Of a stretch of 5,689 nt of DNA, positions 470 to 2,941 are shown one piece after another. Positions within the stretch are counted from its first letter, which is position 1; the number at the start of each line of letters is the position of its first letter. The notes under the pieces are model-generated. The model was not told where the DNA came from and ran no database searches. It was given only the letters and a program-made list of their open reading frames with translations. Source of the stretch: a virus. Its lineage: Duplodnaviria; Heunggongvirae; Uroviricota; Caudoviricetes. Position numbers and translations under genes: made by a program. Location: the IMG/VR virus record IMGVR_UViG_2579779116_000017. The stretch is one strand, 5' to 3'.

Positions 470-2941
470 ATGAGTAAAGTCTTTATTTGCGCCGCTATTC
501 CTGACGAACTGGCAACAAGGGAAGAAGGCGCTGTGGCTGTAGCCACAGCCATTGAAGCTGGCGACGAACGCCGTGCTCGAGCAAAATTTCACTGGCAATT
601 CCTGGAACATTATCCGGCTGCTCAGGACTGCGCTTATAAATTTATTGTCTGCGAGGATAAACCTGGCATACCCCGCCCTGCCCTCGATTCATGGGATGCT
701 GAATATATGCAGGAAAACCGCTGGGATGAGGAGTCTGCTTCTTTTGTCCCGGTTGAGACTGAATCCGATCCGATGAACGTCACTTTTGACAAGCTGGCCC
801 CTGAAGTACAGAACGCTGTCATGGTTAAGTTCGACACATGTGAAAACATCACCGTTGATATGGTTATTAGCGCACAGGAATTGTTGCAGGAAGACATGGC
901 AACATTCGACGGACATATCGTTGAAGCGTTGATGAAAATGCCAGAAGTTAACGCCATGTATCCGGAGCTTAAGTTGCACGCCATTGGGTGGGTTAAGCAT
1001 AAATGTATTCCTGGTGCTAAATGGCCCGAAATTCAGGCAGAGATGCGCATCTGGAAAAAACGTCGCGAAGGTGAACGCAAGGAAACCGGAAAATACACGT
1101 CTGTTGTTGATCTCGCCCGCGCCAGAGCCAATCAACAGTACACTGAAAATTCAACAGGAAAAATCAGCCCGGTCATTGCTGCCATTCATCGCGAATACAA
1201 GCAGACATGGAAAACACTGGATGACGAACTGGCCTACGCTCTCTGGCCTGGTGATGTGGATGCCGGAAACATTGACGGCAGCATCCATCGCTGGGCAAAA
1301 AAAGAAGTTATCGACAACGACCGCGAAGACTGGAAGCGTATCTCGGCATCAATGCGCAAACAACCTGATGCCCTTCGCTACGACCGCCAAACTATTTTTG
1401 GCCTTGTCCGTGAGCGTCCGATCGACATTCACAAAGATCCCGTAGCACTGAACAAATATATCTGCGAATACCTGACGACAAAGGGCGTGTTTGAGAATGA
1501 AGAAACAGACCTGGGCACTGTTGATGTTCTCCAGTCATCAGAAACACAAACTGATGCAGTGGAAACTGAGGTATCTGATATCCCAAAAAATGAAACCGCG
1601 CCGAAAGCTGAACCATCTGTAGAGCGTGAGGGGCCGTTCTATTTCCTCTTCGCAGATAAGGACGGAGAAAAATACGGTCGCGCAAACAAACTCTCTGGTC
1701 TGGATAAGGCACTGGCTGCTGGCGCCACTGAAATCACAAAAGAAGAATATTTTGCCCGAAAAAATGGCACATACACGGGCTTACCGCAAAATGTAGATAC
1801 CGCTGAAGATTCAGAACAACCAGAGCCGATAAAAGTTACCGCTGACGAAGTAAACAAAATTATGCAGGCAGCCAATATCAGCCAGCCTGACGCCGATAAG
1901 TTGCTTGCTGCATCACGTGGTGAATTTGTTGAAGGGATTAGTGACCCGAATGATCCGAAATGGGTTAAGGGGCTCCAGACCCGCGATTCTGTGAACCAGA
2001 ACCAGCATGAATCGGAACGGAACTACCAAAAAGCGGAACAAAACAGTCCAAATGCGTTACAAAACGAGCCAGAAACGAAACAGCCTGAACCAGTAGCGCA
2101 ACAGGAAGTGGAAAAAGTCTGCACCGCCTGCGGTCAGACCGGCGGCGGCAACTGCCCTGATTGTGGCGCGGTGATGGGCGACGCAACATACCAAGAAACA
2201 TTCGATGAAGAGTATCAGGTTGAAGTTCAGGAAGATGATCCGGAGGAAATGGAAGGCGCTGAACATCCACACAAGGAGAACACTGGCGGCAATCAGCATC
2301 ACAATAGCGATAATGAAACTGGCGAGACGGCAGATCACCCAATTAAGGTGAACGGTCATCACGAAATCACATCCACCAGCAGGACGTGTGACCATCTAAT
2401 GATCGACCTTGAAACCATGGGAAAAAATCCTGATGCCCCGATCATCTCAATAGGTGCAATATTTTTCGATCCGCAAACCGGAGATATGGGACCGGAATTT
2501 AGTAAGACTATCGATCTGGAAACTGCTGGCGGAGTCATTGATCGGGACACCATTAAATGGTGGCTGAAGCAATCACGCGAAGCGCAATCTGCCATTATGA
2601 CCGATGAAATCCCGTTAGATGATGCACTGTTACAATTGCGAGAATTTATCGACGAAAACTCCGGTGAATTTTTTGTTCAGGTCTGGGGAAATGGAGCCAA
2701 CTTCGACAACACGATTTTGCGCCGTTCATACGAACGGCAGGGGATCCCCTGCCCGTGGCGTTACTACAACGATCGCGATGTACGCACAATCGTTGAGCTG
2801 GGGAAAGCCATAGACTTCGATGCCAGAACGGCTATTCCGTTCGAAGGGGTGCGCCACAATGCACTTGATGACGCCCGTTACCAGGCAAAATACGTTTCAG
2901 CAATCTGGCAAAAACTGATCCCGAATCAGGCTGATTTTTAA
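470..2941 (+). CDS. Large phage exonuclease-family protein (~823 aa) with an uncharacterised N-terminal region, a CxxC...CxxC zinc-ribbon-like motif, an acidic/His-rich linker and a C-terminal DnaQ-like DEDDh 3'-5' exonuclease domain
   Basis: Uninterrupted 2.5 kb ORF in the exo position upstream of xis-int. The C-terminal ~180 aa carry DnaQ-like motifs: Exo I MIDLETMG, Exo II [13 protein letters not shown], Exo III [11 protein letters not shown] Cys cluster [16 protein letters not shown] lies at about nt 2120-2164. Start chosen at ATG 470 (MSKVF...) because of GAGG at 456-459; the track start at TTG 434 and ATG 455 are alternatives. Comparable lambdoid prophage genes are often annotated exodeoxyribonuclease VIII, but the C-terminal fold here is DEDDh, not the PD-(D/E)XK fold of Rac RecE. 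Confidence 0.8.
   Translation: [823 protein letters not shown]

Follow-up and report, generated by a model that had tools for sequence, protein, structure and literature searches.

The DNA analysed here, a stretch of 5,689 nucleotides from a tailed phage (IMG/VR record IMGVR_UViG_2579779116_000017; "the window" below is this whole stretch), is the left arm of a Qin/Tritos-type lambdoid prophage. The gene under study is an intact, full-length ydfE-type gene on its plus strand (470..2941), which encodes an 823-aa protein composed of a RecE-like scaffold and a DEDDh exonuclease domain. Its open reading frame (ORF) runs from the ATG at 470 to the stop codon at 2939-2941, and a Shine-Dalgarno element, GAGG, can be read at 457..460 (+), 9 nt ahead of the ATG. 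The TTG at 434 that a mechanical ORF list gave as the start (835 aa) was rejected because ATG 470 has this Shine-Dalgarno element and because both the K-12 ydfE annotation and the homologues begin with MSKVF. Upstream are dicB (1..189, +), which encodes a cell-division inhibitor of the same early-left operon (Pfam DicB, 1.9e-40, and NCBIfam; the gene order is equal in Qin and Tritos), and ydfD (186..377, +), which encodes a DUF1482 lysis protein (Pfam DUF1482, 3.9e-26; annotated as lysis protein YdfD in relatives). Directly downstream comes xis (2994..3272, +), whose excisionase assignment relies on a Pfam Exc match (7.8e-5) with a score of 23 bits, exactly the cut-off, and on the annotation of relatives, and then int (3241..4359, +), encoding a lambda-type tyrosine integrase (Pfam Arm-DNA-bind_1, 3.5e-21; Phage_integrase, 6.3e-20). 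An ORF6N gene and then a DUF2335 gene lie beyond int.

In Qin/Tritos-type lambdoid phages the early-left operon (ydfABC-dicF-dicB-ydfD-ydfE-xis-int) is under repressor control, and the ydfE-type gene is its final cargo gene. A search for promoter-like sites gave none ahead of the gene. The corresponding dicBF operon (ydfABC-dicF-dicB-ydfDE) is repressed by DicA (PMC10448788). An original prediction, made from the sequence alone, had placed the gene in the position of exo/recE, directly upstream of xis-int. It does adjoin xis-int, but the slot label is loose, as Rac has recT, ralR and rcbA between recE and xis. The gap to xis is 52 nt and therefore holds no annealase gene, so that the prediction of no bet- or recT-like gene at this place stands for the window. 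The slot directly before xis is occupied by stand-alone 190-aa DEDDh genes in phages LLS and mEp460.

The DEDDh 3'-5' exonuclease domain comprises aa 639-820 (2384..2929, +) and was assigned from Pfam, an alignment with DexA, mEp460 gp26 and LLS gp34, an AlphaFold2 (AF2) model and Foldseek. Pfam PF16473 (Rv2179c-like 3'-5' exoribonuclease domain) matches aa 642-813 with an E-value of 1e-67 and 227.7 bits against a cut-off of 27, over profile positions 2-177 of 177. The three motifs named in the original prediction (DLE, FD and H-x4-D) are all present, as D646-L-E648 (Exo I), F745-D746 (Exo II) and H796-x4-D801 (Exo III). The catalytic residues D646, E648, D746, H796 and D801 (codons at 2405-2407, 2411-2413, 2705-2707, 2855-2857 and 2870-2872, +) align with D7, E9, D119, H186 and D191 of T4 DexA, respectively, and are invariant in a four-sequence alignment with the DexA, mEp460 and LLS proteins. 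T4 DexA (8KEL/8KEN) is the sole relative of solved structure found by sequence, at 28% identity. The AF2 model of aa 440-823 shows one confident domain at aa 639-820 (predicted local distance difference test, pLDDT, of 76-93), for which Foldseek ranks DexA (8KEL, 6.5e-11) first in the PDB, followed by RNase T, Orn/REXO2 and Cas2-DnaQ at about 1e-7; model and comparison both identify an RNase H-like DnaQ fold. The profile search and the structural comparison that had been proposed as checks thus both uphold the DEDDh assignment. No PD-(D/E)XK, YqaJ or lambda-Exo family matched in Pfam, NCBIfam or PHROG scans of the 823-aa protein, while the same kind of scan gives Rac RecE a match to PF12684 (DUF3799) at 4.1e-28. 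With no such profile match a lambda-Exo-like identity was rejected, and the earlier view that the nuclease is not of lambda-Exo/RecE type is borne out.

The N-terminal ~640 residues had been described as not recognisable, and this part of the original prediction has to be revised. By BLASTP, aa 262-627 align with residues 278-592 of Rac RecE (E 2e-61, 39% identity overall), and a reading of the alignment gives ~85% identity between aa ~476-627 and RecE ~460-592, a stretch that includes a 26-residue motif, a CxxC-x7-CxxC element and an acidic tail. The RecE homology stops within ~12 residues of the DEDDh start, which is the same position where the RecE nuclease domain begins. For aa 1-225 (the N1 module) the Pfam Exonuc_VIII (PF06630) hidden Markov model finds no match; hhalign of a YdfE-type against a RecE-type N1 profile gives a probability of 96% and an E-value of 3.9e-9 over 183 columns (0.38 for the reversed control), which points to a divergent RecE N-domain. 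The NCBIfam RecE equivalog (NF007259, PRK09709) matches only partially, with 286.8 bits against a cut-off of 1269, and only model positions ~446-600 of 877 match well. A full-length homologue with 94% identity has precomputed matches to the Pfam families YdfE_N and YdfE_C, whose names derive from YdfE, and PHROG 2082 represents the full-length family. The homology does not bring a known function with it and so does not refute the original prediction, since the function of the RecE N-region is itself stated as unclear, though full-length RecE boosts linear-linear recombination (PMC11610958).

The AF2 model of aa 1-450 (49-sequence alignment, mean pLDDT 85) contains three confidently folded blocks, aa 1-225, 245-340 and 388-432. 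The N1 module (470..1144, +) consists of an alpha/beta domain (aa 1-100) and a helical domain (aa 110-225), mostly with pLDDT >90, and is YdfE-type, probably with remote homology to the RecE N-domain. The helical core (aa 245-340; 1202..1489, +), which BLASTP aligns with RecE ~278-360, has pLDDT 93-97 and a ratio of nonsynonymous to synonymous substitution rates (dN/dS) of 0.11-0.13, and is common to nearly all relatives surveyed. An acidic disordered linker (aa 346-381; 1505..1612, +; pLDDT <50, dN/dS 0.45-0.70) leads to a beta-hairpin/helix mini-domain (aa 388-432; 1631..1765, +) with pLDDT 94-96 and dN/dS 0.06-0.07. The remaining ~200 residues before the nuclease domain (aa 440-638; 1787..2383, +) have pLDDT <50 and, judged by the model and their composition, are probably a disordered acidic tether. 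Within this linker lie the RecE-conserved 26-residue motif (aa 476-501; 1895-1972, +) and the zinc-ribbon-like CxxC-x7-CxxC motif (C551/C554/C562/C565; 2120-2164, +).

A search of aa 1-345 against 1.84 billion representative proteins returned only 168 clusters. Reference segments were mapped onto the long members (61 clusters of at least 450 aa) and combined with Pfam scans; the helical core was detected in ~50 of these 61, and 55 representatives have alignments of at least 85 aa. Matches to the mini-domain come almost exclusively from relatives whose N1 is YdfE-type, and Rac RecE offers no good counterpart. All combinations exist among the representatives, in that a YdfE-type or a RecE-type N1 can be joined to either nuclease (DEDDh or PD-(D/E)XK) or to none that is recognisable; for ten relatives whose C-terminus is unassigned, Pfam scans gave no match. 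The 813-aa protein of phage vB_EcoS-689R5 (URC08875.1) is 58% identical to RecE 50-591, and the last 192 aa of the 823-aa protein, that is, its DEDDh domain, match it at 99%. From these identities the 689R5 protein is a clean nuclease-domain swap on a RecE body. Phage PhiR5_2 carries at 2565-4637, immediately upstream of gam-bet-exo, a 690-aa protein labelled 'exodeoxyribonuclease VIII' with the RecE N-domain, the core and the zinc-ribbon-like element and without the nuclease domain; it probably belongs to the 'RecE-2' class, described by Zheng et al. 2025 as proteins lacking a nuclease domain (PMC12315714).

Segment-wise comparison of 470-2941 with two relatives (L014, from E. albertii, and L015) showed that synonymous divergence (dS) is patchy. 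Against the E. albertii copy it varies from 0.04 to 0.67 between adjacent segments, with 0.65 at aa 1-100, 0.04 at aa 101-261, 0.67 at aa 386-440 and 0.04-0.07 at aa 551-823, and this unevenness points to repeated, ongoing intragenic recombination between prophage copies. The 126 bp at 1892-2017, which encode the RecE-conserved motif, have 91% nucleotide identity with a gene annotated as recE in one E. coli genome. Going by this identity, the segment is likely a crossover point for exchange between recE and the ydfE-type gene.

The first 256 residues are 100% identical to the Qin pseudogene ydfE (b1577) of K-12, in which IS2E sits behind codon 256 and the whole remainder, nuclease domain included, is missing; what the window holds is thus ydfE in its intact form. 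Copies covering at least 80% of the gene are found in 3537 of 5426 complete E. coli genomes (65%), often several in one genome and at up to 10 places. One 90%-identity cluster has 23,183 member sequences, full-length 823-aa copies occur in thousands of genomes, and 99%-identical genes are carried by the viable phages PhiR42_1, HannyBb and Tritos. Against relatives dN/dS is 0.12-0.30 for the whole gene, 0.03-0.17 for the folded domains and 0.45-0.70 for the linkers. The DEDDh domain, with 0.03 against the E. albertii copy, is under the strongest purifying selection of any segment in that comparison. The gene as a whole is intact and under purifying selection. A decayed pseudogene was considered and rejected in view of the intact ORF, the whole-gene dN/dS and the presence in viable phages. 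Some copies are inactivated: that of Shigella flexneri CP182557.1 stops after 37 codons in the ORF extraction, and K-12-like copies (L002, which is Qin, and L018/L019) are cut by IS2 after codon 256. The description of the gene as conserved-looking but poorly understood is apt, as it is constrained and abundant, and a 2023 paper lists only DicF, DicB and YdfD as characterised members of the dicBF operon (PMC10448788).

Whether such genes travel with an annealase was followed across 14 loci, ten of the DEDDh type (the window and nine others) and four of the PD-(D/E)XK type; a single-protein scan with one genome per species gave mainly Escherichia/Shigella loci and two metagenome-assembled genomes. 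In all four PD-(D/E)XK forms (Rac, phage 673R7, P0128 and P0223) recT follows directly, overlapping the stop codon. The DEDDh forms (window, Qin, VG48B2, HannyBb, 689R5, P0133 at two places, P0232, P0247 and Tritos) are followed directly by xis-int or int, and no annealase was found in any of the ten, including the early-left operon where it is visible; in HannyBb there is a 205-aa ORF without a Pfam match. In particular, no annealase turned up on inspection of the early-left operons in Qin, VG48B2, HannyBb and Tritos. The check for an upstream annealase in homologous prophages, which the original prediction had proposed, likewise turned up none in the DEDDh loci inspected. Two further loci encode relatives with no recognisable nuclease, one before xis-int (P0126) and the other before gam-bet-exo (PhiR5_2).

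Taken on its sequence, the ydfE-type gene encodes a RecE paralogue in which the ~630-aa scaffold has been kept and the C-terminal PD-(D/E)XK nuclease has been replaced by a DexA/Rv2179c-type DEDDh domain. The protein would be made together with DicB, YdfD, Xis and Int on induction or infection. Its DEDDh domain is predicted to remove nucleotides from 3'-OH ends by two-metal catalysis, with D646, E648, D746 and D801 binding Mg2+ and H796 acting as the general base, and the substrate would most probably be DNA, by analogy with T4 DexA, the nearest relative of known structure. The scaffold may have a task that does not depend on the nuclease (targeting, binding of a partner or oligomerisation, for instance), as it is also found joined to a 5'-3' nuclease or to no recognisable nuclease at all. 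Since all ten DEDDh loci lack an annealase and all four PD-(D/E)XK forms are coupled to recT, the protein would act as a stand-alone DNA-end trimming enzyme and not as half of an exonuclease/annealase recombinase. In the last and weakest step, it probably processes the 3' tails or ends of linear phage DNA for the host RecBCD/RecA, or modulates end metabolism otherwise. We give an even chance to this reading as a whole, in which a stand-alone 3'-5' DNA-end exonuclease serves end processing in annealase-less, Chi-rich lambdoid phages that rely on the host RecBCD/RecA. The recombination, anti-defence and nucleic-acid-processing roles that the original prediction offered were non-committal and are all compatible with these results.

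Phages of this kind have been described by Zheng et al. 2025 (PMC12315714), who present Tritos as the prototype of 'nuclease only' lambdoid phages with no single-strand annealing protein (SAP), single-stranded DNA-binding protein (SSB) or anti-RecBCD function, count 7-21 top-strand Chi sites in phages of the Tritos class, and report genes for DnaQ-type nucleases in the vicinity of int. Two Chi octamers (GCTGGTGG) are found in the window itself, at 2373-2380 and 4189-4196, both on the minus strand, opposite to early-left transcription. Two compares with 0.13 expected by chance, and 1 of 200 shuffles reaches this count. The first of them falls right within the junction of ~12 codons that separates the RecE-homologous part from the DEDDh domain. 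Such a Chi pattern agrees with what Zheng et al. 2025 describe for the class of Chi-rich phages poor in Rec modules.

Several points weigh against an end-processing role. A pro-recombination function is not obvious, because a 3'-5' exonuclease degrades the recombinogenic 3' tail, and, as Zheng et al. 2025 (PMC12315714) note, the usual effect of DnaQ-type nucleases on homologous recombination is inhibitory. The sequence does not discriminate between DNA and RNA as the substrate: the Pfam family takes its name from an exoribonuclease, and in fold RNase T and Orn come almost as near as DexA does. The correlation with annealase genes comes from 14 loci, several of which are closely related prophages. 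No relative of solved structure was found for the scaffold, so there is no clue to a partner, and the scaffold may carry the main function, because some relatives in the same slot have no nuclease domain. No biochemical, genetic or functional study of a ydfE-type protein was found in the literature.

A wider proposal can be put forward tentatively, and we think it improbable as it stands: that the ~600-aa N-region of RecE is a self-contained, nuclease-agnostic platform, to which lambdoid phages add a 5'-3' nuclease and RecT, a 3'-5' DEDDh nuclease by itself, or no nuclease at all. On that view the DEDDh form, which roughly two in three E. coli genomes carry, would represent a second, annealase-independent pathway, either as a phage-encoded helper that channels linear DNA to the RecBCD/Chi recombination of the host or as a scaffold-targeted exclusion nuclease acting on rival phages.

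The main rival, modelled on the E. coli DexA homologue EcD and in our view unlikely, is an inter-phage exclusion or defence function of the 'HREX' type, where the DEDDh domain would selectively degrade the modified DNA of T-even-like invaders, of the 5-hydroxymethylcytosine (5hmC) type, to the benefit of both prophage and host. Kang et al. 2025 solved the DexA structure, name intron homing among the roles of DexA in T4, and report that EcD carried on a plasmid shields E. coli against T4 and that the enzyme digests T4 (hmC) DNA and not unmodified double-stranded DNA; their table of phage DexA homologues includes URC08875.1, the RecE-N::DEDDh fusion of 689R5 (PMC12153337). DexA is also the closest solved structure to the domain of the window protein, and a benefit to the host would be in keeping with the retention of an intact gene, often as several copies, by 65% of complete E. 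coli genomes. EcD has, however, a different sequence, and the 5hmC-reading and dimer-only signature does not appear in the form stated for it (D718 is kept, and the alignment puts Y766 and, flanked by two aspartates, F783 at the other two positions). The gene ends a DicA/CI-repressed early operon with no promoter-like site found for it and should be silent in lysogens, and a defence role would leave the 630-aa RecE scaffold unexplained. PADLOC returned only a weak, generic match to a Cas-associated DEDDh nuclease, which also leaves a catalogued defence system unsupported.

Next, and again unlikely, is that the scaffold is the functional part, for example by binding a host factor, and the DEDDh domain an interchangeable and partly dispensable accessory, a reading that overlaps with the end-processing one. 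The nuclease-less relatives of P0126 and PhiR5_2 and the 'RecE-2' proteins speak for it, and the core and the mini-domain are constrained as strongly as the nuclease domain. It is at odds with the purifying selection on the DEDDh domain, the strongest of all segments against E. albertii, with the retention of all catalytic residues, and with the stand-alone DEDDh genes that occupy the same slot in LLS and mEp460 with no scaffold at all.

Still less probable is an RNA or oligonucleotide 3'-5' exonuclease like Rv2179c, RNase T or Orn, which would act on transcripts, for example in 3'-end decay of the dicBF-xis-int message, or on short oligonucleotides, in nucleotide salvage or signal degradation. 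Both the Pfam description and the NCBI pipeline name, '3'-5' exoribonuclease', point this way, Foldseek matches the domain strongly to RNase T, oligoribonuclease and REXO2 (E ~1e-7), and the dicBF transcript is heavily processed by RNases (PMC10448788). Yet DexA, the nearest relative for which both structure and substrate are known, acts on DNA; the domain is joined to a scaffold that otherwise belongs to a DNA recombination nuclease, in a slot that holds DNA-transaction genes in lambdoid phages, and no RNA-binding domain was detected in the protein. Finally, a canonical RecE (exodeoxyribonuclease VIII), that is, a 5'-3' double-stranded DNA exonuclease working with an annealase, has next to no chance: the 'exodeoxyribonuclease VIII' label on the PhiR42_1, Tritos and 689R5 records and the partial PRK09709 match favour it, but the score is far below the equivalog cut-off, the operon has no recT or bet, and the domain content refutes it, with DEDDh in the place of PD-(D/E)XK/DUF3799.

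That label is, on the domain content, wrong both for the catalytic domain and for the predicted polarity, although the protein is elsewhere already annotated as '3'-5' exonuclease'. The point has some consequence, since this is among the commonest prophage genes of E. coli, carried by viable phages and often mislabelled exonuclease VIII. A RecE scaffold with a nuclease of opposite predicted polarity and no annealase amounts to a natural experiment on the function of the RecE N-region, the region that makes full-length RecE useful for linear-linear recombineering. The protein is further a concrete candidate for DNA-end handling in Chi-rich lambdoid phages without a Rec module, and bears on whether DexA/EcD 'HREX' defence extends to abundant prophage-borne homologues.

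The window extends past int into a P1/P7 immI-like cassette (4356-5184, +). It comprises a near-consensus promoter, TTGACA-18-TATAGT (4356-4385, +), c4-a1b1 targets (4379-4431, +; Rfam), isrK (4392-4468, +; Rfam, 73 bits), a C4 antisense RNA (4494-4577, +; Rfam, 72.5 bits) and the ORF6N antirepressor-like gene (4630-5184, +; PADLOC PDC-S05, 6e-10). Most relatives lack the ORF6N gene: they match 86% of the window, in two pieces, and the gene therefore looks like an inserted module. The last gene (5222-5689, minus strand), which runs off the window end, encodes a predicted DUF2335 membrane protein (Pfam) with a weak PADLOC match to PD-T4-6 (E 0.002) and is possibly a moron at the prophage end; strain VG48B2 has this DUF2335 gene between int and potC.

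A comparison with known systems places the protein among familiar parts. Both halves are known families, mosaic domain exchange is expected in lambdoid phages, and this is not a new kind of system; the architecture is already recognised by annotation pipelines, has its own Pfam and PHROG families, and is touched on in passing in two 2025 papers (PMC12315714, PMC12153337). YdfE of the K-12 Qin prophage belongs to the same dicB-ydfD-ydfE operon and differs in being interrupted by IS2E. LLS gp34 and mEp460 gp26 are 58-61% identical to the nuclease domain of the window protein, and their phages have no Rec module according to Zheng et al. 2025 (PMC12315714); the LLS gp34 gene is directly upstream of xis-int, and that of mEp460 gp26 is in the same region, four genes upstream of int. 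Unlike the window protein, both are 190 aa long and have no RecE-type scaffold.

T4 DexA and EcD ('HREX') have the same DEDDh fold and catalytic pentad and belong to the same Rv2179c-like Pfam family, but they are stand-alone proteins of ~190-230 aa, whereas the domain in the window follows 638 aa of RecE-like sequence and its gene sits at the end of a repressed operon in a temperate phage. DexA W152 corresponds to Y766 in the window protein, and DexA D169 falls on F783, which has D782 and D784 on either side, in an alignment that may be off by 1-2 columns. The tetramer-forming aspartate D90 of DexA is kept as D718 and is A78 in EcD, and DexA S87 corresponds to P715. The cloning primers of EcD imply a protein that starts with MIDTET and ends with TIPETY, different from the window protein; a search with the primers for the EcD sequence gave no match for the 23-mer and, for the 20-mer, one unrelated viral contig with a portal-like ORF.

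The 'RecE-2' proteins, including the 690-aa protein of PhiR5_2, have the same core, motif and zinc-ribbon-like element and the same early-left operon setting, and differ by having no recognisable nuclease. Compared with Rac RecE (b1350), the window protein carries a DEDDh domain of predicted 3'-5' polarity in place of the 5'-3' PD-(D/E)XK/DUF3799 nuclease, has no adjacent recT, possesses the extra mini-domain at aa 388-432 and scores far below the NCBIfam equivalog cut-off. What the two have in common is a homologous N-terminal scaffold including the CxxC..CxxC element, a probable remote homology of the N1 module, and the place of the gene in the early-left operon of a lambdoid prophage.

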